This document shows positions 4,175 through 62,828 of a stretch of DNA of 64,000 bases, in pieces. The translations under genes and the position numbers were made by a program. The notes under the pieces were generated by a model. That model worked only from the letters and a program-made list of their open reading frames with translations, was not told the origin of the DNA and did not search any database. The stretch spans positions 46,433 to 110,432 of the forward strand of contig JAUWAW010000001.1 of NCBI GenBank assembly GCA_030601865.1, written 5' to 3'. This stretch comes from Candidatus Nealsonbacteria bacterium (GTDB lineage Bacteria > Patescibacteriota > Minisyncoccia > Minisyncoccales > JAUWAW01). Within the stretch, counting starts at the first letter, position 1. Every line of letters begins with the position of its first letter.

Positions 4175-5914
4175 ATGTCAAACAAAAAAATAGAAAAAAT
4201 TCGGCATTCGCTGGCGCATATTATGGCTGCAACGGTTAAGGAGCTTTATCCAAGAGTCAAATTCGGTATTGGCCCGGCCATTGAAAATGGTTTTTATTAT
4301 GATTTTGATTTAACCTCTCCTCTGTTCCCTGAAAATCTGCCAAAAATTGAAAAGAAAATACGGGAATTGATTAGAAAAGATTTAAAGTTTGAGAAAGAAA
4401 GTATTTCAAGAACAGAAGCCAAAAAAATATTTAAAAACCAACCATATAAATTCGAATTAATTAAAGAACTAAAAGGGCTACAAGTTTCATGTTTCAAGTT
4501 TCATGATTTCGTTGACTTGTGCAAGGGGCCTCATATTAAATCAACCAAAGAAATAAATCCCAAGGCGTTCAAATTAACTAAAATCGCCGGGGCTTACTGG
4601 CGGGGTGATGAGAAAAACCCCATGCTCACCCGCATTTATGGCGTGGCCTTTGAAACAGAAAAAGAATTAAAAGATTATTTAAAACAAGTTGAAGAAGCAG
4701 AACAAAGAGACCATCGTGTTTTGGGTGAAAAATTGGACTTATTTCATATTGATAAAGCCATCGGCCCAGGCCTTATCCTTTGGCATCCCAAAGGCGCACT
4801 CCTCAAAAAAATCATTGAGGATTATGTGCTTTCAGAATACCTAAAAGCCGGCTATCAACTGGTTAACACTCCCCATATTGCTAAAATTTCCATTTGGGAT
4901 ACCTCGGGCCACACCAAATTCTACAAAGACAGTATGTTCCCAGTCATGCAACTCAAGGAAATGGGCAAGGTAATCCCTTATCAGCTCAAACCAATGAATT
5001 GCCCTTTTCATATCTTGATTTATCAAAAAGAAATTAGAAGTTATCGCCAATTACCTATCCGATACACTGAATTAGGCACGGTTTATAGATACGAGAAATC
5101 AGGCACCTTGCACGGGCTGACGCGAGTGCGTGGTTTTACTCAAGATGATGCTCATATTTTCTGCACTCCTGAACAACTTGGTAAAGAGTTAGTGTCTGTT
5201 TTAAAACTAACTTTAAAAATATTTAAAACTTTTGGTTTTAAAGAATTTGAGATATGTCTTTCCACCCGGCCAAAAAAATATGTTGGCACTTTAAAAAGTT
5301 GGCAGAAAGCCACCAATGCTTTAAAATATGCCTTGGAAAAAGTAAAACTTGCCTATCAAATTGACCCTGGCGAGGGCGTTTTCTATGGACCCAAGATTGA
5401 CATTAAAATCAAAGATTCTTTGGGAAGGGCTTGGCAGTGTACCACCATCCAAGTTGATTTCAATTTACCTGAGGGATTTAATTTAAGCTATATTGATAAA
5501 AAAGGCAAAAAGAAACAGCCCATTATGATTCACCGAGCGCTTCTGGGTTCTTTGGAAAGATTTATTGGCGTTTTGATTGAGCATTATGCAGGCGCTTTCC
5601 CTTTGTGGCTGGCTCCAGAACAGACTTGGATTATTCCCGTAGGTACCCGTCACAAAAAATACGCCCGTGAAACATGCAAACAACTCTACGAGAACAGTTC
5701 TCGTAGTATTGTAAAAGACGCCAATGAAACCGTTTCCAAAAAAATAAGGGAAGGGGAAATCCAAAAAATTCCCTATCTCTTGGTTGTCGGCGACAAAGAA
5801 ATAAAAAGAAAATCAGTTAGGGTCCGCCAGCGAGGCAAGGGCGATATTGGAAAAATGAAACTGAATAAATTTATAGAAAAATGCCAGAATTGTCTTTGCA
5901 AACGCAAAAATTAA
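4175..5914 (+). CDS. thrS: Threonyl-tRNA synthetase (short form lacking N-terminal TGS/N1 domains)
   Basis: Starts in the N2/editing-type region (RHSLAHIMAA) and contains class II motifs including HRALLGSLERFIGVLIEHYAGAFPLWLAP, with the anticodon-binding domain at the C-terminus. Confidence 0.9.
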   Translation: MSNKKIEKIRHSLAHIMAATVKELYPRVKFGIGPAIENGFYYDFDLTSPLFPENLPKIEKKIRELIRKDLKFEKESISRTEAKKIFKNQPYKFELIKELKGLQVSCFKFHDFVDLCKGPHIKSTKEINPKAFKLTKIAGAYWRGDEKNPMLTRIYGVAFETEKELKDYLKQVEEAEQRDHRVLGEKLDLFHIDKAIGPGLILWHPKGALLKKIIEDYVLSEYLKAGYQLVNTPHIAKISIWDTSGHTKFYKDSMFPVMQLKEMGKVIPYQLKPMNCPFHILIYQKEIRSYRQLPIRYTELGTVYRYEKSGTLHGLTRVRGFTQDDAHIFCTPEQLGKELVSVLKLTLKIFKTFGFKEFEICLSTRPKKYVGTLKSWQKATNALKYALEKVKLAYQIDPGEGVFYGPKIDIKIKDSLGRAWQCTTIQVDFNLPEGFNLSYIDKKGKKKQPIMIHRALLGSLERFIGVLIEHYAGAFPLWLAPEQTWIIPVGTRHKKYARETCKQLYENSSRSIVKDANETVSKKIREGEIQKIPYLLVVGDKEIKRKSVRVRQRGKGDIGKMKLNKFIEKCQNCLCKRKN

Positions 5915-9456: not shown

Positions 9457-10914
9457 TTAAAGAAGTTGCTTTAATATTTGATTAACCAGTCCCGGGCTGG
9501 CTTTTCCTTTTGTTTGAGCCATAACTTTGCCCACCAGGAATTGTAAGGCGTTTTCTTTTCCCTTTTTATAATCCTCAACTGGTTTTGGGTTTTTATTAAT
9601 AACTTCTTTTATTATTTTTTCAATTTTTTTCTCATCAGTCATTTGTTGCCAGCCCTTTTCTTCAATAATATGGGAAGGGTCTCCTCCAGTGCCAAACATC
9701 TCTTTGAGAACGGTCTTAGCGATTTTGCTTGAAATCTCACCTTTGTAAATCAAAATAATAAACTCAGCAAAATTCTCGGGAGTGATGAGAAAATCCTCGC
9801 CGACAATAGAGGCCCCCTTCAAAAGACCTTGTAGGTCAGTAACAATATAGTTGACAGCCAATTGGGTGAACTTTTTAGTTTGCTTAATCTTTTCAATCTT
9901 TGCCCAGTTGTCCAGTTCAGACATAACTTTCTCAAGATATTCGCCCAAATTTTTATTAAAAACAAAAATTTCAATTTCCTCATCTTTGAGCGCGTATTCT
10001 CTTTTGAAACGTTCTCTACGGGACTGAGGCAATTCAGGAATTTCTGCTTTAATTTCATTGATAAAATCTTCTTCAAGATGAAGCGGAGGAAGGTTAGGTT
10101 CTGGAGCATGCAGGTCTTCCGTGGAAAACATACCACCTCCTTTTTTTCTCTGAGAAAAAGTCATTCCTTTTTCATCGTCCCATCCTCTTGTTTCGGGAAG
10201 CACTTTTTTACCCTTTTTCAAGAGTTCTCTTTGTCTTTCAATCTCAAATTCTGTTGCTTTTTCTGCTGCCCGGAAAGAATTTAAATTTTTAATCTCTACC
10301 TTTGTTCCTAATTTTTTACTGCCTTTCAGCGCCATTGAGATATTTACCTCCACCCTCATCTGACCTTTTTCCATATTAGCTTCAGAGACATTTAAGTATC
10401 TTAAGAGTATTTGCAATTCTTGGGCGAATTTCCTTGCTTCTCTTGCTGAACTAATATCGGGCTCTGTCACTAATTCTATAAGGGGTATCCCAGCTCGATT
10501 AAAATTAACTAAAGAATAATCTTCTTTATGGATTAACGTCCCCACATCTTCTTCTAAATGGAGTTCATGGATTCGTATTTTCTTAGCATCAATTTTTAAA
10601 AAACCATTCTTGCCCAAAGGAGAAATATCTTTACTTATTTGGTATCCTTTAGGTAAATCTGGATAGAAATAAAGCTTGCGAAAGAATTCGGACTTTCTAA
10701 CAATCTCACAATTCAGAGCTAGAGCAGTTTTAACTATCTTTTTCACCGTTTCTTTATTGAGAACCGGAAGCACTCCTGGGTGACCCATACAAATCGGACA
10801 AATATTGACATTGGCATGACTTTCGTTAACGTTATTCAGGCAAGAACAAAACATTTTGCTCTTGGTATTAAGTTCTATATGTATTTCTAAGCCAATTGTT
10901 GGTTGATAGTTCAT
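9457..10914 (-). CDS. gatB: Asp/Glu-tRNA amidotransferase subunit B
   Basis: N-terminus MNYQPTIGLEIHIELNTKSKMFCSC and a GatB/YqeY C-terminal domain. Confidence 0.9.
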   Translation of the reverse strand: MNYQPTIGLEIHIELNTKSKMFCSCLNNVNESHANVNICPICMGHPGVLPVLNKETVKKIVKTALALNCEIVRKSEFFRKLYFYPDLPKGYQISKDISPLGKNGFLKIDAKKIRIHELHLEEDVGTLIHKEDYSLVNFNRAGIPLIELVTEPDISSAREARKFAQELQILLRYLNVSEANMEKGQMRVEVNISMALKGSKKLGTKVEIKNLNSFRAAEKATEFEIERQRELLKKGKKVLPETRGWDDEKGMTFSQRKKGGGMFSTEDLHAPEPNLPPLHLEEDFINEIKAEIPELPQSRRERFKREYALKDEEIEIFVFNKNLGEYLEKVMSELDNWAKIEKIKQTKKFTQLAVNYIVTDLQGLLKGASIVGEDFLITPENFAEFIILIYKGEISSKIAKTVLKEMFGTGGDPSHIIEEKGWQQMTDEKKIEKIIKEVINKNPKPVEDYKKGKENALQFLVGKVMAQTKGKASPGLVNQILKQLL

Positions 10915-15950: not shown

Positions 15951-16090
15951 TGAAATAACCAATAACCAAGATACAATAACCAAACAAATCTCAATAACCA
16001 ATAATCAATAACCAATTATATAATGTTTGGTTATTGGTGTTTGAAGATTGGTTATTGTTTGGTTATTGTTTCTTGTATCTTGGTGATTGA
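15951..16090. repeat. About 140-bp imperfect palindromic element rich in AATAACCA / TGGTTATT (copy 1 of 2), filling the nusG-rplK spacer
   Basis: Left arm aataaccaagatacaataaccaaacaa pairs with right arm ttgtttggttattgtttcttgtatcttggtgatt. It is about 85% identical to the copy at 56757..56884. Confidence 0.7.
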
Positions 16091-16093
16091 ACA

Positions 16094-16639
16094 TTATATC
16101 TTCTTAATTTGCAGCGAATCCAACTCAACCGGGGTGTCTCGGCCAAACATATTGACTAATACTTTCACTTTGCCTTTCTCGGCGTCAATTTCTGAGACCT
16201 TGCCATCAAAGTCTTTAAAGGGACCGTCAGTAATCTTGACCGGGTCGCCAATTTCAAATTCAATTTTATACTGCGGTTCTTCCACACCCATTCTTTTTTT
16301 CAAAATGTCAATTTCTTCTTTTGACACGGGGACCGGGGTTGTACCAGCCCCCACGAATCCAGTTACATTGGGCGTATTTCTGACCACATACCAGGAATCA
16401 TCAGTGACAATCATTTCCACTAAGACATAACCAGGGTAAATCTTTTCCTCCACTACCTTTCTTTTACCATCTTTAATCTTAATCTTTTTTTCTTTGGGCA
16501 CTAAAACATTAAAAATTTTATCGTCCATATCCAAGGATTCAATCCTTTGTTTTAGATTTTTGGCCACTGCATCCTCATATCCAGAATAAGTGTGAATAAC
16601 ATACCAGTTTTTCTCTTGCGGTAGTCTTTGTTTAGGCAT
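16094..16639 (-). CDS. nusG: Transcription termination/antitermination factor NusG
   Basis: NGN domain (WYVIHTYSGYEDAV) plus a KOW domain (GDPVKITDGPFKDFDGKV). Confidence 0.9.
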   Translation of the reverse strand: MPKQRLPQEKNWYVIHTYSGYEDAVAKNLKQRIESLDMDDKIFNVLVPKEKKIKIKDGKRKVVEEKIYPGYVLVEMIVTDDSWYVVRNTPNVTGFVGAGTTPVPVSKEEIDILKKRMGVEEPQYKIEFEIGDPVKITDGPFKDFDGKVSEIDAEKGKVKVLVNMFGRDTPVELDSLQIKKI

Positions 16640-16650
16640 ATTTGAGCTCT

Positions 16651-16720
16651 AATTCAAGATTATATATTTATACATTAGCGAATCAAGGTTCTAGCGGAGC
16701 GTTAGCGAGGCAGGTTCTTA
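16651..16720. promoter_or_regulatory. Repeat family F copy 1 (AATTCAAGATTATATATTTATACATTAGCGAATCAAGGTTCT...GGTTCTTA), 12 nt upstream of the nusG start; candidate promoter module
   Basis: Four copies occur in the window. Read on the minus strand each gives TTGATT-N17-ATAATC-like -35/-10 boxes pointing into the downstream minus-strand gene. Confidence 0.45.
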
Positions 16721-16922: not shown

Positions 16923-16993
16923 TTAATTCAAGATTATATATTTATATATTAGCGAATCAAGGTTCTGACGAGCGTTAGCGAGGCAGGTTCTTA
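16923..16993. promoter_or_regulatory. Repeat family F copy 2, 2-5 nt upstream of the secE start
   Basis: Same sequence family as 16651..16720. Confidence 0.45.
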
Positions 16994-17052: not shown

Positions 17053-17499
17053 CTATCCAGCTATCTCCACTGACTCAATATAATATTGGTTGAGGATTTT
17101 GGTTAAGATGATGGCCTCAATTGTATAACCTATTTCGTCTTTCTCGTATATCTTGACTATGAAGCGGAATTTATCGTCCGTTAACTTTTCACTCTTTAAA
17201 ATCTCGTAACTTGTAAAATCATTAATTAAAGTAAATTGCTCTTTAAGTTTCTGCTCCATTGCTTGTTCAGTAAGATAAAGATTGGCCTGGGCTTCGTTTT
17301 TCTCAACCCGCGCTAAAATAAATCTATCCAGAATATCTTGAGCCGAGCCCTGTTCCATCTCTTGCTGCTGTTTTTCTAATTTTTCTTCAATCAGAGGAAT
17401 TCTTTTCTTTTCCAGCCGATGATACTGCCAAGCCAAAACCACCTCACCCAAAACAACAATCAAAAGAGCAATAACAAATGCTTTGATAACGTCTTTCAT
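17053..17499 (-). CDS. Hypothetical N-terminally membrane-anchored coiled-coil protein
   Basis: 148 aa with an N-terminal TM segment (AFVIALLIVVLGEVVLAW), directly downstream of gyrB. Confidence 0.4.
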   Translation of the reverse strand: MKDVIKAFVIALLIVVLGEVVLAWQYHRLEKKRIPLIEEKLEKQQQEMEQGSAQDILDRFILARVEKNEAQANLYLTEQAMEQKLKEQFTLINDFTSYEILKSEKLTDDKFRFIVKIYEKDEIGYTIEAIILTKILNQYYIESVEIAG

Positions 17500-40488: not shown

Positions 40489-41640
40489 TTAACATATAAT
40501 TATTCCGCCGCCTAAAAGTTTTTCTCCTTTATAGAAAACCACTGATTGACCCGGGGTGACGGCGCGTTGGGGCTTGGCAAAAATTACTTTACAGCGCCTG
40601 CCCGCTATTTTTTTTATTGCTTCAACTTCAATTACTGGCGAACGATACCTTATTTTCGCTTTTATCCCAACTATTGGAGTTGAACTCCAATAGTTTGAAA
40701 TCCAGTTAACATCTTTGACAATCAATTCTTTTTTTTCCAAATGTTTTTCGTTCTTGGTGACAATTAAAGCATTATTTTTGACATCCTTGTCTAAAACATA
40801 GTATGGACCTCCGGCAAGCCCTATCCCCTTTCGCTGACCAATAGTATAAAACCACAACCCCTGATGCTCGCCAATACTACGAGAACAGTTCTCGTAGTAT
40901 TCTAAGATGGGGCCAGGATTTGTTTTAAGATGTTTTCTCAAAAATTCCTCTGTTGTTTTTTTAATAAAGCAAACTTCTTGAGATTCTCTGGCTTCAAGTA
41001 CCGGCAAGTCAAACTCCTTGGCCATCTGTCTTACTTGTCTTTTGGTGTAATCCCCAATGGGAAACAAAATGTGTTTTAATTGTTTCTGGCCCAACTGCCA
41101 TAAAAAATATGATTGATCTTTTTCTTTATCTTTTGCTCTTACCAATGTGTAATTTTGTATTTTTGTGTCAGAATTCTGCGACCTGCCCGTAATGCTTCGC
41201 ATAGCGATACAGGCGGGTCGCAGGATTTTGACACAGTTTAGATCTTTATTTGTATTTTCACATTTACGCGCATAGTGGCCAGTGGCAATAAAATCTGCGT
41301 CCAAGCCCAAGGCTTTTTTCAATAAAAGTCCAAATTTTATTTCTTTGTTGCAGACCACACAAGGGTTGGGGGTTCTGCCTCTTTTATATTCTTTCAAAAA
41401 ATAATTAATGATTTTTCTCTTAAACTCTTTTCTTAAATCCAAAACCAAAAATGGAATGCCTAATTTTTTAGCAATTTTTCTGACTCTTCTCTCACTTTCT
41501 CTGAAATGAGACGACTCATAAAGTTTCATAAAAACTCCTGTTACATTAAAATTAGCCCTTTTAAGAAGGGCTGCTGCTACCGAACTATCCACGCCACCGG
41601 ACATCGCCACTATTACCTTATTTTTTCTTTTTGCTTTCAT
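40489..41640 (-). CDS. mnmA: tRNA-specific 2-thiouridylase MnmA (carries two in-frame palindromic inserts)
   Basis: PP-loop VIVAMSGGVDSSVAAALL and the catalytic Cys regions. The inserts are at 41164..41235 and 40874..40900. Confidence 0.85.
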   Translation of the reverse strand: MKAKRKNKVIVAMSGGVDSSVAAALLKRANFNVTGVFMKLYESSHFRESERRVRKIAKKLGIPFLVLDLRKEFKRKIINYFLKEYKRGRTPNPCVVCNKEIKFGLLLKKALGLDADFIATGHYARKCENTNKDLNCVKILRPACIAMRSITGRSQNSDTKIQNYTLVRAKDKEKDQSYFLWQLGQKQLKHILFPIGDYTKRQVRQMAKEFDLPVLEARESQEVCFIKKTTEEFLRKHLKTNPGPILEYYENCSRSIGEHQGLWFYTIGQRKGIGLAGGPYYVLDKDVKNNALIVTKNEKHLEKKELIVKDVNWISNYWSSTPIVGIKAKIRYRSPVIEVEAIKKIAGRRCKVIFAKPQRAVTPGQSVVFYKGEKLLGGGIIIC

Positions 41641-47028: not shown

Positions 47029-48833
47029 TAACTTCTAAGGAGTTTCAGGTATATTTCCTCGGGAATAGGGGTGCGGCCGTGTTTTTGGAGAATTTTTTTG
47101 CCTTTGCGTTGTTTGACTAAGAGTTTCTTTTTGCGGGTAAAGTCGCCGCCGTACAGGGGCGCGGTCACATCCTTGCGCAGGGCGCGGATATCCTCACGCG
47201 CGATTATTTTGCCGCCAATTTGGGCTTGAAGCGATTGGGTAAAGTTTTTTGGAGGCAGGACATCCTTTAATCTTTTGAGAAACTGACGCGCCTGCTTGCG
47301 CGCCGCGTCTTTATAAACAATGCGCGAGAAACAGGGCTTCAGTTCGCGCGAAACCAAAAACTCAAGTTTAATAAGGTCGCTTTTTTTATACTCGTCAAAT
47401 TCGTAACTAAAGGAAGCGAACCCCTTGCTAATGCTTTTCAGTTTGTCTAAAAAATCCTCAATAATCTCAGCAAGCGGCGCATAAAACTCTAAAAGCAAGG
47501 TATCTTTATCTAAAACTTGCGAGGAAATAAACTTGCCTCGTTTCTGCTCAACTAATTCATGGATTTTGCTGTTGTGTCTGGTCGGGCTGACAATGTTTAA
47601 TTTAACCCAGGACTCCGCTATATAGTCAATCTCGCCCTGGTCCGGCAGTTCTGCGGCCGAATGGACTAAAATCGGCTCTTTTTGCTTTTTTGTCTTTACC
47701 TTGAAAACAACCGAAGGAGAAGTAAGAACCACTTGGGTGCCATACTCCCGCTTTAACCTTTCCATGGTGATTTCCAGATGAAGCATACCTAAAAAGCCGA
47801 TGCGCAGTCCCCTGCCTAAATAAGGATTGCTCATAGGTTTGGCTGTGAGAGAAGTGTCGTTGAGCCGCAGTTTGTCAAAATTGGCTTTCAGGGTTTCAAA
47901 GTTTTGGCCTTGCCCTTGCCCCTGCCCCGGAAAAACATTGGCAAAAACCAATGGCTTGGGCTCTTTATAGCCAGGCAGGCGAGGACAGTCCTCGCCTGAT
48001 TTGGTTGTTATTGTCTCGCCGATTCTGACGTCTGAAACGTTTTTTATGCCCGTGGCGATGTAGCCGATTTGGCCGGCTATTAGTTTTGGCACAGGACTAC
48101 GTTGCGGTATGAAAATGCCGACTTCTCTTGTTTCGGCGCGGACTTTTTGATTGACAAAATAAATTTGGTCGCCTTTTTTGATTTCGTTGCCAAACAGCCG
48201 CACATAGGCAATTACTCCCTGAAAATTGTCGTAAATTGAATCAAAAACCAGGGCTTTTAATACTCCTCCGCCCTCTGTTTTTGGCTGCGGCGCCTGCTTT
48301 ATCAACGCTTCAAGAACTTTCTCTATATTCTCGCCTGTTTTGGCGGAAATAGTTAAAATTTCCCCTGAATCAATACCTAAAAGATTGGCTAATTCCTGCT
48401 TAACTTTTTCTAATTGCTCCTCGCTCGGACAAACATCTATTTTATTGATAACCGGTATTATTTTCAAACTCTGCGCCTGCGCCAGGCGCAGATTAGCCAG
48501 GGTCTGTGCCTGAATGCCTGAAACCACGTCAACCAATAAAATAACACATTCAACAGCGGCCAAAGACCGTTCTACTTCATAGGAAAAATCCATATGGCCA
48601 GGCGTGTCAATCAAGTTTAATTGGTACTTGCGGCCGGCCAGACCATACTCCATTGCACAGGGCTGCATCTTGATAGTGATGCCGCGCTCTCTTTCCAAAT
48701 CCATCTGGTCCAAAACCTGTTCGCGCATCTGCTCTTTCTTCAAGGTGTTGGTAATTTCCAAAAACCGGTCAGCCAGAGTTGATTTGCCGTGGTTTATATG
48801 CGCGATTATAGAGAAATTTCGTATATTTCCCAT
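47028..48833 (-). CDS. lepA: Elongation factor 4 (LepA)
   Basis: G-domain IIAHINHGKSTLADR and DTPGHMDF, and the LepA C-terminal domain. Visibly GC-richer than its neighbours, and contains a GQGQGQ insert. Confidence 0.9.
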   Translation of the reverse strand: MGNIRNFSIIAHINHGKSTLADRFLEITNTLKKEQMREQVLDQMDLERERGITIKMQPCAMEYGLAGRKYQLNLIDTPGHMDFSYEVERSLAAVECVILLVDVVSGIQAQTLANLRLAQAQSLKIIPVINKIDVCPSEEQLEKVKQELANLLGIDSGEILTISAKTGENIEKVLEALIKQAPQPKTEGGGVLKALVFDSIYDNFQGVIAYVRLFGNEIKKGDQIYFVNQKVRAETREVGIFIPQRSPVPKLIAGQIGYIATGIKNVSDVRIGETITTKSGEDCPRLPGYKEPKPLVFANVFPGQGQGQGQNFETLKANFDKLRLNDTSLTAKPMSNPYLGRGLRIGFLGMLHLEITMERLKREYGTQVVLTSPSVVFKVKTKKQKEPILVHSAAELPDQGEIDYIAESWVKLNIVSPTRHNSKIHELVEQKRGKFISSQVLDKDTLLLEFYAPLAEIIEDFLDKLKSISKGFASFSYEFDEYKKSDLIKLEFLVSRELKPCFSRIVYKDAARKQARQFLKRLKDVLPPKNFTQSLQAQIGGKIIAREDIRALRKDVTAPLYGGDFTRKKKLLVKQRKGKKILQKHGRTPIPEEIYLKLLRS

Positions 48834-50434
48834 TAATATTCTTCTTCAAAGATTTGGGCGGTGAAAGTGTAGAGGTCAATATCTTCTTCTTTCCAGCAGT
48901 CCCAGGGCAGACCGACTTTTTGAAAGCAAAGTTCTCCCATAAATTTTTCTAAATCCCAATTATTGTCAGTAGCTACTTGGGGCAGAAAAACACCATTTCT
49001 CAAGCCCTTTCTAATTTGCACGCCGTGTTTGCCAATCTCAATTCCCTGCCAATTATCAATTTTCTCTAAGGGACTCAAAACCGAAATTTCATAGTCAAGC
49101 TCACCAAGTTCATCCTCTCCCACAGGATAAAATCTTTTATCCTGGGTGGCAGCCGCAATGGCCATTTGAGAAACAACTTGATACAGAGGTATGTCAGTGG
49201 GTGAAAAACGGCCAATGCAGCCCCGTAGCTGGCTCTGCTTCTTTAAAGTAACAAAAGCACCCAAGTTTTGATTTAATATGGATTCTTCAACTTGAAATTC
49301 TGGAATTTTACCTTCTTTGACAAAAGTTTCAACTGAATTCTTAGCGATTTCCAAAAGTTTTTCTTGCTCTGTTTTCTTTAATAAATGACTCTGTCTTGGT
49401 CCAAAAAAGCCAATGGCTGCATAGCCAACCACTTGCGATTTATCACCTATGGGCACGTCTCCGGAATTGGCATATTTTAATAATTTAATTTCTTCAGCAG
49501 CCAATTCTTTGGCTACTAACATGATTGTTTTGATAGCATCTTCTGCGCAAACAAAAGTTACTGCTCCAGGAATATTCTCTTTTTCCAAGTCCTGAATTGT
49601 TTTTTCTAACTCCCCTACCCTACCGGTTAAAATGGCTTCAATGGTTTTGCTATCTGCCTGTTGAGCATCACCATAGCTAGGATAATGCGACAAATCAGAA
49701 CTGGCAATCAGTAAAATATTCTTACCTCTGATATTTTTAACAATGGCTTGAGCTAAAATTTTGTAATCTTCTTCTGGGCTGTTGCCCAAAATAATGGGTA
49801 CAATCCGTGGTACGTGCACGGACAAAGGAGATCCTTCGGCCTTCGGCCTCAGGATGACTTGCAAAAAAGGTAATTCCACCTCAAGGGAATGCTCTCTTTG
49901 ATGAACACTCTCTCTGAAAAAAATTCTTTCGTTTTCTGCAATAATTTTTTCAGCTAATTGAGAATCTATTTCTACTTCTCCTAAGGGAGTTTTATAAAAA
50001 CCTCGTGGGAAAATAGAAATACCTTCAAATCTCTCATAATGGCTGTTGCCAATAAGAATCACCGTAGCAAATTGGTTCAAATCGTGACGATCGTCATAAC
50101 TTGAACCACCCATCAGTTGCTTAAAGCCGTAGGCGGCCACGGGGCCAGAAAATGGATAGCCAGCATGGGGCAGAACTAAAGCAAAAATCTCGCCTTCGGT
50201 TTCTGGCGGACTTGCCTTTTCCAAAAATTGGTCAATCATTTTCTCTAACTCCTCAGGGTCTCCAGGATAAAATTGTCCAGCCACTGCCGGCTGCCGAATT
50301 ATTTTTTCTTCTTTTTCAAAAACGTCTGAAACCATAGCTTTTTGAGAAATATCTTCCCCTCCCTTAAATATTAAAAGTATACTAATCGCACCAACAACAA
50401 AAATTAATAAAGCTATTATTAGAACTTTCTTCAT
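48833..50434 (-). CDS. Fusion of AmmeMemoRadiSam system protein B (MEMO1-like) and protein A (AMMECR1 domain), with N-terminal signal/TM anchor
   Basis: MEMO-like motifs (ALVLPHAGYPFSGPVAAY; the SSDLSHY region) in the N-terminal half. The C-terminal half has the AMMECR1 motif GAFVTL...LRGCIG. Confidence 0.7.
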   Translation of the reverse strand: MKKVLIIALLIFVVGAISILLIFKGGEDISQKAMVSDVFEKEEKIIRQPAVAGQFYPGDPEELEKMIDQFLEKASPPETEGEIFALVLPHAGYPFSGPVAAYGFKQLMGGSSYDDRHDLNQFATVILIGNSHYERFEGISIFPRGFYKTPLGEVEIDSQLAEKIIAENERIFFRESVHQREHSLEVELPFLQVILRPKAEGSPLSVHVPRIVPIILGNSPEEDYKILAQAIVKNIRGKNILLIASSDLSHYPSYGDAQQADSKTIEAILTGRVGELEKTIQDLEKENIPGAVTFVCAEDAIKTIMLVAKELAAEEIKLLKYANSGDVPIGDKSQVVGYAAIGFFGPRQSHLLKKTEQEKLLEIAKNSVETFVKEGKIPEFQVEESILNQNLGAFVTLKKQSQLRGCIGRFSPTDIPLYQVVSQMAIAAATQDKRFYPVGEDELGELDYEISVLSPLEKIDNWQGIEIGKHGVQIRKGLRNGVFLPQVATDNNWDLEKFMGELCFQKVGLPWDCWKEEDIDLYTFTAQIFEEEY

Positions 50435-51609: not shown

Positions 51610-51645
51610 TGTGTCAAAATCCTGCGATCGCAGGATTTTGACACA
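51610..51645. terminator. 36-bp perfect palindrome TGTGTCAAAATCCTGCGATCGCAGGATTTTGACACA (family B copy), intergenic
   Basis: Perfectly self-complementary. The identical sequence occurs at 56120..56155, and an expanded variant lies inside mnmA. Confidence 0.6.
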
Positions 51646-56119: not shown

Positions 56120-56155
56120 TGTGTCAAAATCCTGCGATCGCAGGATTTTGACACA
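56120..56155. terminator. 36-bp perfect palindrome (family B copy) between dnaB and recR
   Basis: Identical to 51610..51645. Confidence 0.6.
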
Positions 56156-56160
56156 AAATT

Positions 56161-56754
56161 ATGTATCCAAATTCTATTCAAAAACTTATAGATTTGTTCT
56201 CCAAATTTCCCACGGTGGGTCCTCGGACGGCCTCGCGTTTTGTTTTTTATTTAATGTATCTTCCCAAAGAAAAAATTGAAGAACTCGTTCAAGCCATCTC
56301 TAATTTTAAAAACAAGATTAAACTTTGTCAGCTTTGTTTCAATCCCTTGGAAGGCGAAGGAGGCCTTTGCAAAATTTGTTCTGACCCTACCAGAGACAAA
56401 ACCTTGCTCTGTATTGTTGAAAAAGAAACTGATTTGCAAGCCATAGAAAAAATTAAAAAATATAAGGGTCTTTATTTTATTTTGGGAGGCACGGTTTCTA
56501 ATCTGAAACCAGAAGCCCTAAAAAAACTACGGCTCAAAGAATTAGAAGAACGGGTTAAAAGTCCTGAAATCCAGGAAGTTATCCTGGCAACCAATTCTAC
56601 TACCGAGGGTCAAGCCACGGCTTTATATTTACAAAGATTATTAAAACCCTTCAATAAAAAAATCGTCCAACTCGGACGAGGATTACCTATGGGCGGCGAA
56701 TTAGAGTATGCTGATGAAGAAACACTCTCTTCGGCTCTGGAGAGCAGAAGGTAA
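56161..56754 (+). CDS. recR: Recombination protein RecR
   Basis: HhH N-terminus (LIDLFSKFPTVGPRTASRFVFYL), a C4 zinc finger (CQLC...CKIC) and a Toprim domain. Confidence 0.9.
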   Translation: MYPNSIQKLIDLFSKFPTVGPRTASRFVFYLMYLPKEKIEELVQAISNFKNKIKLCQLCFNPLEGEGGLCKICSDPTRDKTLLCIVEKETDLQAIEKIKKYKGLYFILGGTVSNLKPEALKKLRLKELEERVKSPEIQEVILATNSTTEGQATALYLQRLLKPFNKKIVQLGRGLPMGGELEYADEETLSSALESRR

Positions 56755-56756
56755 AA

Positions 56757-56884
56757 CACCAATAACCAAGAAACAATAACCAAACAAATTTCAATAACCA
56801 ATAACCAATTTCCAAACTGTTTGGTTATTGATGTTTGAAGATTGGTTATTGTTTGGTGATTGTATCTTGTATCTTGGTTATTTC
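56757..56884. repeat. About 130-bp AATAACCA/TGGTTATT palindromic element, copy 2, between convergent recR and rplU (overlaps the rplU 3' end)
   Basis: About 85% identical to 15951..16090. Its right arm supplies the last codons of rplU. Confidence 0.7.
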
Positions 56885-57174: not shown

Positions 57175-58212
57175 TTATTCTAAACTGGCAGGTCTTTCTA
57201 TTTGTTTAACTTCCATTTTGGACTGGCCGCCAGTTACCTTGAGCACATCTTTATCAATCTTGCCAAATTCTTTGTAAGCATTATTATAGCTGTTTATCGT
57301 GGTACCAAGATGAGTGCCCAGTTTCTCCATATAATTATTGTAGTTTGCCAAGTGGCGGCCGAGCATCTCTACTCTTTTGCGGATTTCCTTGGCCGACTTC
57401 TCAATTTGAAACGCTCTCAAGCCCTGCAAAATTGTCTGTAAATAAGCGTAAAAAGAAGTGGGAGAAACAATATGAACGTGCTTTTCTCGCACTGCATACT
57501 CAATCAAATCCCGGGTGTTGCTTTTAATCGCTCCAATCTTATTAACCAATAAATCATAATAAACTGCTTCAGCTGGAATAAACATAAAAGCAAATCCCAA
57601 AGTGCCTTCCCGGGGTCTGATATACTTGGCTGTTTCTTCAATGCGGTTTTTCAAATCCTGTCTGAAGGTTTTTTCTAATTGTTCTCGTCGGCCCGGGTCT
57701 TTTTCTTCAATAATTCTATTATAATTTTCTAAGGAAAACTTAGAGTCAATGGGAATAATTTTATCTTCTCTAACAAATATGACCGCATCAACAATTTGAC
57801 CGTCTTTAAATTGATACTGCATTTGATACTGACTGGGGCTGAAAACATTTTTTAATAACTCTTCCAAATAATATTCTCCTAAAATGCCACGCTGCTTAGG
57901 ATTTTTTAAGATATTTTCCAAGGACTGCAGCTGCTCAGCAAAACCAACCACTTGCTTGTTGGTTTCATCAAGCTTGGTCAACTTTTCTGTTACATCGCGG
58001 ATAATTTTAGCGCTCTGACTAAATTGCTCTTGGATGGCTTTACCGGATTCAGACAATCTATTATCCAGAACTTGATTAAGATTATTAAGTTGCTGCTGCA
58101 GCATTAACAATGACTGAGTTTCCTTTTCTGGCCTTCTTTTTAATAGCAAAAAAATAACCATGCCCAATCCTATCAAAAGAACCAAAAAAAATATCAAAAA
58201 AAAGTAATCCAT
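57175..58212 (-). CDS. rmuC: DNA recombination protein RmuC
   Basis: N-terminal TM, coiled coil and the RmuC C-terminal domain (GFAFMFIPAEAVYYDLL). Confidence 0.8.
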   Translation of the reverse strand: MDYFFLIFFLVLLIGLGMVIFLLLKRRPEKETQSLLMLQQQLNNLNQVLDNRLSESGKAIQEQFSQSAKIIRDVTEKLTKLDETNKQVVGFAEQLQSLENILKNPKQRGILGEYYLEELLKNVFSPSQYQMQYQFKDGQIVDAVIFVREDKIIPIDSKFSLENYNRIIEEKDPGRREQLEKTFRQDLKNRIEETAKYIRPREGTLGFAFMFIPAEAVYYDLLVNKIGAIKSNTRDLIEYAVREKHVHIVSPTSFYAYLQTILQGLRAFQIEKSAKEIRKRVEMLGRHLANYNNYMEKLGTHLGTTINSYNNAYKEFGKIDKDVLKVTGGQSKMEVKQIERPASLE

Positions 58213-58316
58213 TAGATTACTTTAGCATGAGAAATAAAATGAAGCAAGGAGGGGTGTCAACTCAATACTCCAAGCAAAATCTTCAAATCGTTGCGATCGT
58301 CATAATCTGAAGTATG

Positions 58317-58931
58317 TTATTTTTCCTCCTTTAGTAAGTTAAGTATTTCTTCTGGTCGGTCAACTTTATCAACAGTGAAAATGAAAATATACTTCCTTAG
58401 TCCAGCATCATCTATTTCTTTTATGAAACTGGCAGGAATTGGATATTTACCGACATAGACACTTTTTTGAAGTTGTTGGAACTGCATCAAAAGAAGTTCT
58501 TGACGAATAATCCTTCTCCAATGTTTTCTTTTTTCAGGAATATCAAAAATCACTATTCTTAGTTTTCCGTCCCAAGGTTTTTTTAGAATTAAATATCTGT
58601 TTTCAACATAACTCACAACTTTCTTGCCTTTGTCAGTTAAATGATAAATTTTTTGTTTTGGGTCTTTGCTGATTAAACCATCCTCTATTAAACGATAGAG
58701 GTTTGTCTCTATTGTCTTTTTCTTAAAAGTCAGTTCTTTGTAAGATTTGACACCAAACATCTGCTTCATCAATCCAAAGGCAGGATAAGAGTCGGGCAAT
58801 CCTCTTAAAAAGTCCTTTCCTCCTTCTTTGAGGGAAAACAAAATATAGGAGGCAGCATTCAATCCCTGATTAAATAATCTTTGGGCAAAGTTTCTTTTTT
58901 TAAGTTGAAAAAAATATCTTTTTGTCGGCAT
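58317..58931 (-). CDS. Winged-helix protein with C-terminal Cas2/VapD-like or PaaX_C-like segment (uncertain family)
   Basis: The central LYRLIEDGLISKD...YHLTDKGKKVV is wHTH-like. LRIVIFDIPEKRKHWRRIIRQELLLMQFQQLQKSVYVG resembles the Cas2 beta1-alpha1 signature (hydrophobic strand + RRR..L...G.Q.SV). No CRISPR array nearby. Confidence 0.4.
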   Translation of the reverse strand: MPTKRYFFQLKKRNFAQRLFNQGLNAASYILFSLKEGGKDFLRGLPDSYPAFGLMKQMFGVKSYKELTFKKKTIETNLYRLIEDGLISKDPKQKIYHLTDKGKKVVSYVENRYLILKKPWDGKLRIVIFDIPEKRKHWRRIIRQELLLMQFQQLQKSVYVGKYPIPASFIKEIDDAGLRKYIFIFTVDKVDRPEEILNLLKEEK

Positions 58932-59006
58932 AATAGGTTATTATTACTTCTTCAAATCGTTGCGATCGTCATAAGTTGAAGGAAGGAAAAATTCATTTTA
59001 ATAAAA

Positions 59007-59054
59007 TTTCAACGGCATAAAATCTCAACGGCATAGAATTTCAACGGCAACGAA
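59007..59054. repeat. Three perfect-period 16-bp tandem repeats (TYTCAACGGCAWARAA)
   Basis: tttcaacggcataaaa / tctcaacggcatagaa / tttcaacggcaacgaa. Copies 2-3 overlap the last codons of the cation/Ca antiporter gene. The array lies upstream of the wHTH gene. Confidence 0.6.
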
Positions 59055-59984
59055 AATGATGTAAAGGAAAAGTAAAACCAAGGCTTCTTTTTTGGTGATT
59101 TTTTGGCCGGTGCGAACGATAATTAAGAAAAATATGGCGGCTATGACCAGGAAAATCCGGGCGATAGCAAAAGGAGAAAAGTCCGTAATCTCAATGGGAC
59201 AAATCAAACAAACCACGCCCAAGACCAAGGTGGCAGGCACAATAATAGAACCCATTAGATTTCCCAGGACCATCCAATTCTGACCTCTCTTAGCAGAAAC
59301 AATGGCAAAATAGATTTCGGGTAAGGCATTAACCAAGCCGATGATTAAAATTCCCATTATGGGAATTGATAAGTTAAAGCTCTCAAAAAAATAAATACTG
59401 CTATTAACCAAACCTTCAGCTGCTAAAAACAGAAGGGCTAAAGCTAAAACCATTTTCCCTAAGTCCTTGACAAAGGTCTTAAACTCTCTGATAATTCCTT
59501 CGTCCGCATCTTCATAAACTTTTTTGAATCTTTCTTTTTTAGAAAAAAGCCAAAAAATATAAAGAGTAAAAGCTGAAAGCAAAACTAAGCCATCTCCCCT
59601 GCCCAATTTTCCATCTAAGATTAAAATTAAGGGCAAGATGGCCACCCCGGCGGTAAAAAGAGTGCTGGTCTGAACCATGCGACTGGGGGCAGGGAGAGTG
59701 GCTCCGGCAACCAAAACTGCCAAAGCCACAGCTAAAGTCAAATCAACCACATTCCCTCCCATTATGTCGCCCAAAGAAAGCTGAGGAATCTTATGCAAGG
59801 CAGCATTTATGCCAACAAAAAGATTGGGCAGAGAACCAACCACCGCCATAACAAAGAAAGCCAGCACAAACTCCCGCCAACCCAAATATTTAGCCATTCT
59901 TATTAAAGCGCTGACCAACCACGAGCCCGCACAAAAAAGCATCAGACACGAACCTATGAAAATAAAGATATAAAGCCAAATCAT
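59025..59984 (-). CDS. Sodium/calcium exchanger (CaCA, YrbG-like) membrane protein
   Basis: Two alpha-repeat regions (GSLPNLFVGINAA; GNALPEIYFAIVSA) and about 10 TM. Confidence 0.7.
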   Translation of the reverse strand: MIWLYIFIFIGSCLMLFCAGSWLVSALIRMAKYLGWREFVLAFFVMAVVGSLPNLFVGINAALHKIPQLSLGDIMGGNVVDLTLAVALAVLVAGATLPAPSRMVQTSTLFTAGVAILPLILILDGKLGRGDGLVLLSAFTLYIFWLFSKKERFKKVYEDADEGIIREFKTFVKDLGKMVLALALLFLAAEGLVNSSIYFFESFNLSIPIMGILIIGLVNALPEIYFAIVSAKRGQNWMVLGNLMGSIIVPATLVLGVVCLICPIEITDFSPFAIARIFLVIAAIFFLIIVRTGQKITKKEALVLLFLYIIFVAVEILCR

Positions 59985-62602: not shown

Positions 62603-62703
62603 ATTACTTTTATTTTAACATTTTAACAAAAATTAACAAAAAAATTGGCTATCTCCAAGCCAATCAAAAAAAACAAACTGTAACAAAATCAAATTTCTTT
62701 TAT

Positions 62704-62828
62704 TTCAAGAATATATGTTTATACATTAGCGAATCAAGGTTCTTGAGCGAAGCGAGAGGTTCTTAATTCAAGAATATGTGATTATTCCTTAGCGAATCAA
62801 GGTTCTCGAGCGAAGCGAGAGGTTCTTA
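62704..62828. promoter_or_regulatory. Two tandem copies of repeat family F (62704..62766 and 62765..62828) upstream of the P-type ATPase gene, overlapping the murF 3' end
   Basis: Same family as 16651..16720 and 16923..16993. Confidence 0.45.

Follow-up and report, generated by a model that had tools for sequence, protein, structure and literature searches.

The window analyzed here comprises 64,000 nucleotides (nt) of contig JAUWAW010000001.1 from Candidatus Nealsonbacteria bacterium; judged by gene content and protein matches, it belongs to the Candidate Phyla Radiation (CPR)/Parcubacteria, and its G+C content is 38.6%. On the minus strand, a P-type ATPase gene and an antiporter gene are followed by a 204-amino-acid (aa) open reading frame (ORF), rmuC and the gene for L21; recR also belongs to the neighborhood, and no paa genes lie nearby. 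The 204-aa ORF stands between two same-orientation copies of a CGATCG-centered repeat, and the two sites and the gene form a self-contained module of about 700 bp (58280 to 58981), with a 16-bp tandem array just upstream (Table 1). We found that the gene encodes a small relative of the regulator PaaX, that bracketing by such dyads is a feature of its gene family, and that the module is missing from the same junction in relatives of this genome. The same 870 bp were present, 1 single-nucleotide polymorphism (SNP) apart, in two independent Logan assemblies (SRR14872663 and SRR34846496), and this near-identity indicated that the layout of gene, repeats, and array is not an assembly artifact.

Table 1. 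Features of the window discussed in the text (positions are those of the window; TRF, Tandem Repeats Finder)
Feature	Position	Strand	Remarks
Mini-PaaX gene, 204 aa	58317..58931	minus	Pfam PF20803, AF2 model, Foldseek
Putative cognate dyad site, upstream	58949..58981	.	gene orientation CTTCAACTTATGA-CGATCG-CAACGATTTGAAG; center 34 nt before ATG
Putative cognate dyad site, downstream; direct repeat of the upstream copy	58280..58312	.	begins 4 nt past the stop codon; center 20 nt past the stop
Third, diverged family C copy; better palindrome	50074..50106	.	in-frame in Memo domain ORF
Solitary perfect CGATCG dyad, second arm family (TGTGTCAAAATCCTG...)	51610..51645	.	14 nt upstream of radical-SAM gene start
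Second, identical solitary dyad	56120..56155	.	fills the dnaB/recR gap
Exact right half of the TGTGTCAAAATCCTG-CGATCG dyad	41218..41239	.	begins at the dyad center; inside ~30-aa mnmA insertion
3 x 16-bp tandem array	59007..59054	.	period exactly 16, 3.1 copies, TRF score 84
P-type ATPase gene	62602-59981	minus	
Na+/Ca2+ exchanger-family antiporter gene, upstream neighbor of the 204-aa ORF	59025..59984	minus	Pfam PF01699
rmuC, downstream neighbor of the 204-aa ORF	57175..58212	minus	Pfam PF02646

The two gene-flanking copies, each 33 nt long, match at 31 positions and share 26 nt exactly (TCTTCAAATCGTTGCGATCGTCATAA), which bears out the claim of an earlier note on this DNA, made from the letters alone, that the gene lies between repeats of the same orientation. 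A shared 25-mer was expected 0.00 times in shuffles. Both copies are poor palindromes, symmetric only at the outer CTTCAA/TTGAAG and at the CGATCG core, and the upstream one has a single mismatch to the tripartite motif CAAW-N5-V-CGATCG-B-N5-WTTG. This motif has five matches in the window, namely the three copies of the repeat family (family C) and the dyads at 51610 and 56120, against 0.46 expected; CGATCG itself is not overrepresented (8 observed, 8.3 expected). When folded as RNA, the flanking copies reached -6.8 and -5.7 kcal/mol (z = -2.4 and -0.8), the copy at 50074-50106 reached -18.2 kcal/mol, and the 56120 family reached -26.6 kcal/mol. An exact search for the window palindrome in metagenome contigs returned 0 matches. 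The module coincides with a local G+C minimum (0.32 to 0.33 against 0.35 to 0.45), which is not decisive, and beyond it rmuC retains its own leader with TTGACA (58213-58279).

For the 204-aa protein, the Pfam domain PaaX_M ("PaaX central Cas2-like domain," PF20803) was detected over residues 118 to 192 (E = 2.8e-15; 56.6 bits versus a cutoff of 24). Cas2 (PF09827) fell just below its threshold (22.8 bits versus 23.8), several winged-helix Pfam families scored below theirs over residues 63 to 115, and PaaX_C had no Pfam match, the chain ending at residue 204. The NCBIfam equivalog for PaaX (TIGR02277) gave 35.5 bits versus a cutoff of 264.55, and cas2 (TIGR01573) gave 20.8 bits versus 24.5; in PADLOC, PHROGs, and NCBIfam we obtained only subthreshold winged-helix and Cas2 matches and no toxin-antitoxin family. 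The domain layout consists of N-terminal helices, a PadR/AspA-like winged helix at approximately residues 63 to 115, and a Cas2-like beta-alpha-beta-beta-alpha-beta domain at approximately residues 118 to 200. An AlphaFold2 (AF2) model built with 25 homologues as input had a predicted local distance difference test score (pLDDT) of 76.8 overall and above 90 over residues 121 to 200, with strands at 124-129, 152-155, 158-161, and 182-187 and helices at 133-148 and 167-175. Foldseek ranked Escherichia coli PaaX (8a39; E = 2.6e-5) first and the PaaX-like Rv0674 (3kfw) second for this model, followed by many Cas2 chains at a probability of 0.9 to 1.0. A weak VapD match (3ui3; E = 0.24) exists as well. 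In an hhalign comparison with E. coli K-12 PaaX, residues 69 to 187 paired with PaaX 52 to 171 only, and a sequence search of the Cas2-like half against the PDB yielded just spurious designed TIM barrels. Invariant in the family alignment are W120, D121, D130, and the Cas2-like strand LQKSVYxGK; D130 ends β1 (FDIPE), the position of the Cas2 metal ligand, and a conserved His-x-His motif is absent from the alignment. Since the DNA-binding domain and the dimerizing domain of PaaX are present and the effector-binding domain PaaX_C is absent, we call the protein, as modeled, mini-PaaX; the tests applied class it neither as a Cas2 nor as a PaaX orthologue. The prediction of the earlier note that the protein joins a winged helix to a Cas2-like segment therefore agrees with Pfam, AF2, and Foldseek, the latter part being the PaaX middle domain, and the observation named beforehand as counting against it, a match to PaaX_C alone with no Cas2 similarity, was not made, as PaaX_C has no match.

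The family comprises 4980 clusters at 50% identity (E <= 1e-3), its top members are nearly all 170 to 210 aa long, and the named members come from CPR lineages; among the 2.9 million viral contigs of IMG/VR, no relative of mini-PaaX was found. Homologues occupy unrelated gene contexts, and several diverged copies are found per genome, co-resident paralogues being 45 to 72% identical, with one pair at 88%.

The comparison covered 80 homologous genomic loci and 80 RmuC loci (designated by L-numbers, such as L008 and L014). In the first homologous loci that were read, the gene had a long CGATCG-centered palindrome at one end or at both, and the arms varied between genomes. Under strict criteria, the dyad density in the 80 loci was 3.37/kb at 150 bp or less from the gene versus 0.011/kb elsewhere, and under relaxed criteria a CGATCG dyad was present on both sides of the gene in 50 of them. 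The only pair classed as distant (L018) encloses a second paralogue. In a core-agnostic test, the upstream and downstream 250 nt were compared for a shared 20-mer with at most 2 mismatches; it was positive for 46 of 71 family genes but only for 5 of 137 similarly sized control genes from the same loci (Fisher p = 2.9e-22). The 80 metagenomic RmuC loci, which were chosen independently of mini-PaaX, contained 0 exact tripartite motifs, approximately 4 weak dyads, and one distant family member. These two sets of controls rule out generic terminators and chance, and both explanations of the repeats were rejected. Common terminators were also what the earlier note had named as a possible undoing of its reading; the repeats proved specific to the gene family, and the window copies, with the folding energies given above and no T-tract, do not look like intrinsic terminators. 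We regard the flanking repeats as a family-wide conserved element and, judging from this distribution, as the likely binding sites of the protein, a point that the earlier note had missed.

Some dyads are perfect over 23 to 31 nt per arm, and some distant subfamilies have other palindromic cores, e.g., CGGCCG. Co-resident paralogues carry different arms, with three arm families within one genome, as would be expected of orthogonal protein-site pairs. In the window itself, no second family member was found as an owner of the TGTGTCAAAA-type dyads. A second paralogue, owner of the 51610/56120 arm family, may reside elsewhere in this genome. A 68%-identical homologue in L004 is flanked by a dyad very similar to this pair, and the radical-SAM gene near the 51610 dyad belongs to an AmmeMemoRadiSam-type operon. 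In another CPR genome, a distant family member (L150 5127-5732; profile E = 2.8e-16) lies directly downstream of rmuC, and no CGATCG dyads were detected at that locus. In several homologous loci (L005 3640-3900; L013 1-181; L022 4718-4932; L021 40-160 and 880-1000; L029 8940-9110 and 10000-10080), the dyad lies inside 80- to 120-bp tandem duplications or is present two or three times on the same flank of the gene. Such repeated dyads suggest that the sites are prone to recombination.

The anatomy of the site was derived from 64 nonredundant dyads folded onto 128 half-sites. The bases C-A-A-A/T at -13 to -10 are strongly conserved (90, 92, and 91 of 128) and position -4 is never T, while the spacer at -9 to -5 and the outermost arm are variable. 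Mismatches that break the symmetry pile up at positions 5 to 10, and positions 12 to 16 are nearly always symmetric. G.T pairs showed no excess on the sense strand (33 versus 39 and 28 versus 28 for sense versus antisense), no T-tract was present downstream of the 3' dyad copies (mean of 4.0 T in 10 nt), and no Rfam family matched the dyads. Because of these mismatch positions and the lack of both wobble bias and a T-tract, recognition on duplex DNA is preferred over a hairpin, and the pattern fits a symmetric dimer that would read two outer boxes and the core on the duplex rather than in a transcript.

The upstream dyad is centered at a median of approximately 47 nt ahead of the start codon, with a wide spread, and the downstream dyad mostly starts immediately past the stop codon, the distance from stop to center peaking at 17 to 22 nt. 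Hexamers resembling a -10 element peak at +33/+34 from the dyad for the upstream copy toward the gene only (19 of 51, versus 3 to 9 in three control directions). In L014, L016, L017, L029, L008, and others, the gene-proximal box reads TTGnnA and is followed after 16 to 18 nt by a TATAAT-like hexamer. From this spacing and the one-directional -10 peak, the upstream site in a subset of homologues is predicted to overlap the -35 element of the gene's own promoter, the classical layout of an autorepressor.

Comparison of gene order gave evidence for movement. The locus L008 has the same ATPase-antiporter-rmuC-L21-recR synteny as the window (RmuC 79% identical), with 14 nt from the antiporter stop to the rmuC start, and its family member (70% identical) is located upstream of the ATPase gene, between its own dyads; the tripartite motif is matched exactly a third time in L008, inside the recR region (17200-17225). 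In all 13 relatives examined (L008 and 12 metagenomic loci), the antiporter gene immediately precedes rmuC, and the junction lacks a family member. The closest relative, L089, has a gap of 70 nt there that holds an unrelated hairpin and the rmuC promoter. By this comparison, the module is unique to the window's lineage at the antiporter/rmuC junction. As 13 syntenic relatives lack a family member there, the data suggest an insertion, precise loss in the relatives being the alternative, and this presence/absence check supports the mobilized cassette proposed in the earlier note. A converse case was found in L012, where a module lies beside a block syntenic with 23.4 to 30.2 kb of the window and the window has none. 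No target-site duplication is visible at the insertion: the two 16-mers of the duplication stand in tandem instead of on either side of the insert, and since no matching 16-mer exists at the insert's other end, the 16-bp array is not such a duplication.

The solitary palindromes behave similarly. The 36-nt dyad in the dnaB/recR gap is missing from the orthologous 11-nt gap of L008. The copy at 50074-50106, within a Memo/AMMECR1 fusion ORF (48833-50434, minus strand), encodes GSSYDDRHDL and coincides exactly with a 10-residue insertion relative to human MEMO1. The half-dyad in mnmA (40489-41640, minus strand) is a 22-nt exact copy and falls inside an insertion of about 30 residues relative to solved MnmA structures; a short inverted repeat (GACCTGCCCG...CAGGCGGGTC) adjoins it. 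Where the sites around a family gene are asymmetric, the two are mostly direct copies of each other and nearly identical (window, L022, L023, L029, and L076), and sometimes they are inverted (L008, L038, and L045).

We propose, with about an even chance of being right, that a mini-PaaX dimer regulates and insulates its own gene by binding the sites that flank it. PaaX itself is an autorepressor with a winged helix-turn-helix and a dimerization motif that recognizes widely spaced inverted hexamers, TGATTC(N27)GAATCA (PMC9493321). By analogy, the Cas2-like domain of mini-PaaX would serve dimerization, as in PaaX, and the winged helix would bind DNA. The homodimer would occupy a tripartite, dyad-symmetric site of about 34 bp, composed of the invariant CGATCG core and outer boxes at positions 10 to 16 on either side (consensus ..ACAAA/TTTGT.., here TTCAAA/TTGAAG). 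The upstream copy would act as an operator, occluding the -35 element in the subset of homologues in which the gene-proximal box is the -35 hexamer; in the window, where this copy lies 17 nt before the ATG, it would stand as a roadblock against transcription running on from the antiporter operon. Downstream, the copy that abuts the stop codon may be a second operator, either looping with the first or shielding the gene from transcription that starts outside. With sites on both sides, expression of the gene would in this model be independent of the place where the module lands.

Several observations weigh against this proposal. A plain autoregulator needs no second site past its stop codon. Between the antiporter and the ATG of the window gene, no sigma-70-like promoter was found on the gene strand, and only 14 nt separate the TTGAAG box of the window copy from TATTAT, a -10-like hexamer overlapping the start codon; transcription of the gene probably comes from the antiporter operon and would meet the site on its way. 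Distances between winged helices correlated weakly with distances between sites (0.07 to 0.37), no better than did those of the Cas2-like domain. Moreover, differences within site pairs are often symmetric (38 compensated versus 164 uncompensated positions), and together with the perfect dyads this suggests a process that creates perfect palindromes, beyond selection for binding. The sites may have been born as perfect palindromes by some copying process, after which the spacer decays and selection keeps the boxes and the core. The solitary copies are inserted units, some of them in-frame in ORFs, which is unusual for operators. Autoregulation leaves unexplained the birth of perfect sites, the solitary copies in ORFs, and the gain to the host.

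The main rival is that the protein makes and moves the palindromes, as a Cas2-fold nuclease or recombinase that is targeted by the winged helix and cuts or joins at the CGATCG core, in a selfish system resembling insertion sequences (IS) or the repetitive extragenic palindromic (REP) elements with their REP-associated tyrosine transposases (RAYTs); we consider it unlikely. It would fit the module's absence from the junction in 13 relatives, the presence or absence of 36-nt dyads at orthologous sites, the in-frame copies in the Memo and MnmA ORFs, and the half copy that starts exactly at a dyad center. It would also fit the near-identical direct, less often inverted, copies of asymmetric sites around the gene, the tandem duplications that take in the dyad (L005, L013, and L022), and the symmetric within-pair differences, which point to a palindrome-generating process; an arm family for each paralogue recalls the REP that each RAYT has of its own. 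The family never varies in the Asp at the end of β1, the catalytic position of Cas2, and retains the Cas2-type Q-x-S-V-Y strand. With its inverted arms on both sides of a 6-bp core, the dyad resembles the core sites of recombinases. To our knowledge, however, no Cas2-fold protein catalyzes transposition or recombination alone. Near-identical gene copies within a genome are not seen, the paralogues being old and diverged to the identities given above; solitary dyads are rare (approximately 0.01/kb outside the flanks and in the control loci); and the viral contigs hold no relatives. Spacer symmetry is often lost while the boxes are kept, which fits binding better than hairpin chemistry, and the same domain is a dimerization module in PaaX (PMC9493321). 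Also doubtful, in our judgment, is a new class of palindrome-associated enzymes, in which the Cas2-fold domain of mini-PaaX, placed at the dyad center by the winged helix, would cut or join DNA there, generate perfect palindromes, spread them (also in-frame), and relocate the module as the CPR counterpart of REP/RAYT on the fold known from CRISPR adaptation, possibly coupled to GATC methylation.

Could the dyads instead be core sites at which an unlinked recombinase of the host, such as a tyrosine recombinase of the Xer type, integrates the gene as a cassette into solitary dyads or excises it from them, with mini-PaaX as an accessory or directionality factor or as cargo? We judge this improbable. 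At the empty antiporter/rmuC junctions of the relatives there is no dyad for a cassette to have targeted, none of the loci examined has a recombinase gene linked to the module, and a palindromic core lends no directionality. The arms co-vary with the protein and not with the genome, three arm families occurring in one genome. What speaks for such a recombinase is the combination of direct repeats around a single gene with solitary sites elsewhere, the inverted pairs of L008, L038, and L045, which would permit inversion, a chimeric site in L017 with one arm of another type, and the different position of the module in the window and in L008 within a conserved 5-kb neighborhood.

A single-chain addiction gene of the toxin-antitoxin kind, in which a Cas2/VapD-like RNase toxin is autoregulated by its winged helix via the flanking operators, has a similarly small probability in our estimate. 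It is compatible with the proposed autoregulator on DNA binding and adds a selfish function. The fold belongs to the Cas2/VapD superfamily with the acidic β1 residue conserved, and VapD 3ui3 was weakly matched; the family is multicopy, diversified (4980 clusters), and variably located, as toxin-antitoxin loci are. Yet a single gene stands between the sites with no conserved partner in the homologous loci, the database searches gave no PADLOC or toxin-antitoxin matches beyond the subthreshold Cas2 and winged-helix ones, and sequence does not tell an active RNase from a dimerization domain.

That the repeats act as RNA hairpins, whether as intrinsic terminators, stabilizers of mRNA ends, or processing sites of a Cas2-like RNase, is very improbable. 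The dyads of many homologues do fold strongly (approximately -26 kcal/mol, z near -9), there is a slight excess of A on the left flank and of T on the right, and the downstream copy abuts the stop codon. The reading was rejected on account of the symmetric wobble counts, the mid-stem mismatches, the missing T-tract and Rfam match, and the window's own copies, which scarcely fold; in addition, the invariant core and boxes indicate recognition that is sequence specific and not of structure only.

The 16-bp array was confirmed as three repeats of exact period, and, as the earlier note had also seen, two of its units supply C-terminal codons of the antiporter: the coding part takes in unit 59039-59054 and most of unit 59023-59038, with the antiporter stop (59025-59027) inside the middle unit. 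The antiporter end FVAVEILCR* aligns at equal length with IIVQLIFR* (L008) and LLAEIFFT* (L089). This conserved length indicated that units 1 and 2 (59039-59054 and 59023-59038) are, on alignment, the native antiporter 3' end, which contains GCCGTTGA twice, 16 nt apart. Unit 3 (59007-59022) is a copy of unit 2 duplicated across the stop codon, and the sole SNP between the two assemblies falls in the array, raising the similarity of units 2 and 3. Near homologues, tandem repeats are heterogeneous, occurring in 30 of 80 loci at approximately 3-fold over a largely coding background. Given the native codons and these patchy arrays, the array is probably a slippage duplication, outside the module and its mechanism, rather than an iteron. 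The operator or iteron role given to it in the earlier note did not hold up and a conserved one was rejected; although the array contains TTCAA, also the outer box of the dyad, and L008 has a 3 x 17-bp array (TTCAATAYTGCATTTYA, 10688-10738) 27 nt beyond its downstream dyad that recalls the window's, an operator of the winged-helix protein is highly doubtful here, as the first two units are length-conserved antiporter codons and the arrays near homologues are heterogeneous.

Among known systems, PaaX (PF07848 + PF20803 + PF08223; PDB 8a39 and 3l09) is the best structural match, with a winged helix followed by a Cas2-like middle domain. Mini-PaaX differs in lacking the C-terminal effector domain (204 aa versus 316 aa), in having no link to paa catabolic genes, in a site with an extra invariant CGATCG core, shorter box spacing, and presence on both gene sides, and in belonging to a family that is multicopy, CPR restricted, and relocatable. 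With Cas2 and VapD it shares the ferredoxin-like fold, the acidic residue ending β1 (FDIPE), the Q-x-S-V-Y strand, and structural matches to Cas2; unlike Cas2, it stays below the Pfam and TIGRFAM cutoffs and is fused to a winged helix. No CRISPR-like or regularly spaced array is present among the repeat families of the window, in agreement with the earlier note, and the immediate neighbors, the antiporter and RmuC genes, are not cas genes, the whole 64 kb not having been searched for cas1.

REP elements and their transposase-like RAYT genes, reportedly described by Nunvar in 2010 and by Bertels and Rainey in 2011, are similar in that a single gene is flanked by a palindromic repeat that is also found solitary between genes, with a repeat family for each gene family and genes that are old and diverged. 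Mini-PaaX lacks an HUH/Y1 fold, its solitary copies amount to approximately 0.01 to 0.06/kb and not to hundreds, and the conservation seen here fits duplex recognition by a dimer and not a hairpin with a 5' tetranucleotide. The dispersed dyads, five motif sites in the window, are rare in other loci, and flanking dyads occur in at least 50 loci. Rickettsia palindromic elements (RPE), which Ogata is said to have described in 2000, reportedly insert in-frame into ORFs, and here, too, palindromic copies coincide with insertions that keep the frame in Memo and MnmA; RPE are approximately 100 to 150 bp long with no known associated protein, whereas the present elements measure 34 to 44 bp and go with one particular gene family. 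The highly iterated palindrome HIP1 (GCGATCGC) of cyanobacteria (PMC4390886) has the CGATCG/GATC core in common but is an 8-mer with thousands of copies, in contrast to the 34-bp sites of one gene family. In the literature searched, no description was found of a mini-PaaX gene bracketed by cognate palindromes in CPR. The fold and the logic of an autorepressor with a dyad operator are of kinds already known; new relative to that literature are the two-sided CGATCG dyads, the paralogue-specific arms, the relocation of the unit, and the link to in-frame palindromic insertions.

The genomes of CPR bacteria (Patescibacteria) are tiny, and we know of few recognizable regulators in them. If mini-PaaX proteins are regulators, the flanking sites directly reveal the recognition sequence of each paralogue, and CPR regulons could be predicted without cultivation. 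Should the Cas2-like domain act on the palindromes instead, this would be a case of the Cas2 fold at work on DNA outside CRISPR and would bear on the origin of Cas2, and the module would be a new kind of small mobile element. On either reading, the site-gene-site rule is a simple signature for annotation.

Other repeat families were noticed in the window. A long imperfect palindrome of approximately 130 nt, AT-rich and without a CGATCG core (CAATAACCAA... / ...TTGGTTATTG), has two intergenic copies (15953-16109 and 56753-56882) that are 89 to 94% identical, one of them between recR and L21. A two-copy palindrome family with a different core (CTACGAGAACAGTTCTCGTAG) lies at 5681-5714 and 40872-40905. 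Finally, a 63-nt repeat occurs at 16649-16711, 16923-16985, 62700-62762, and 62763-62825; on the minus strand it contains a promoter-like TTGATT-16 nt-TATATT and lies upstream of the ATPase gene and of 16094-16639(-), and from these elements the family looks like a repeated promoter cassette.

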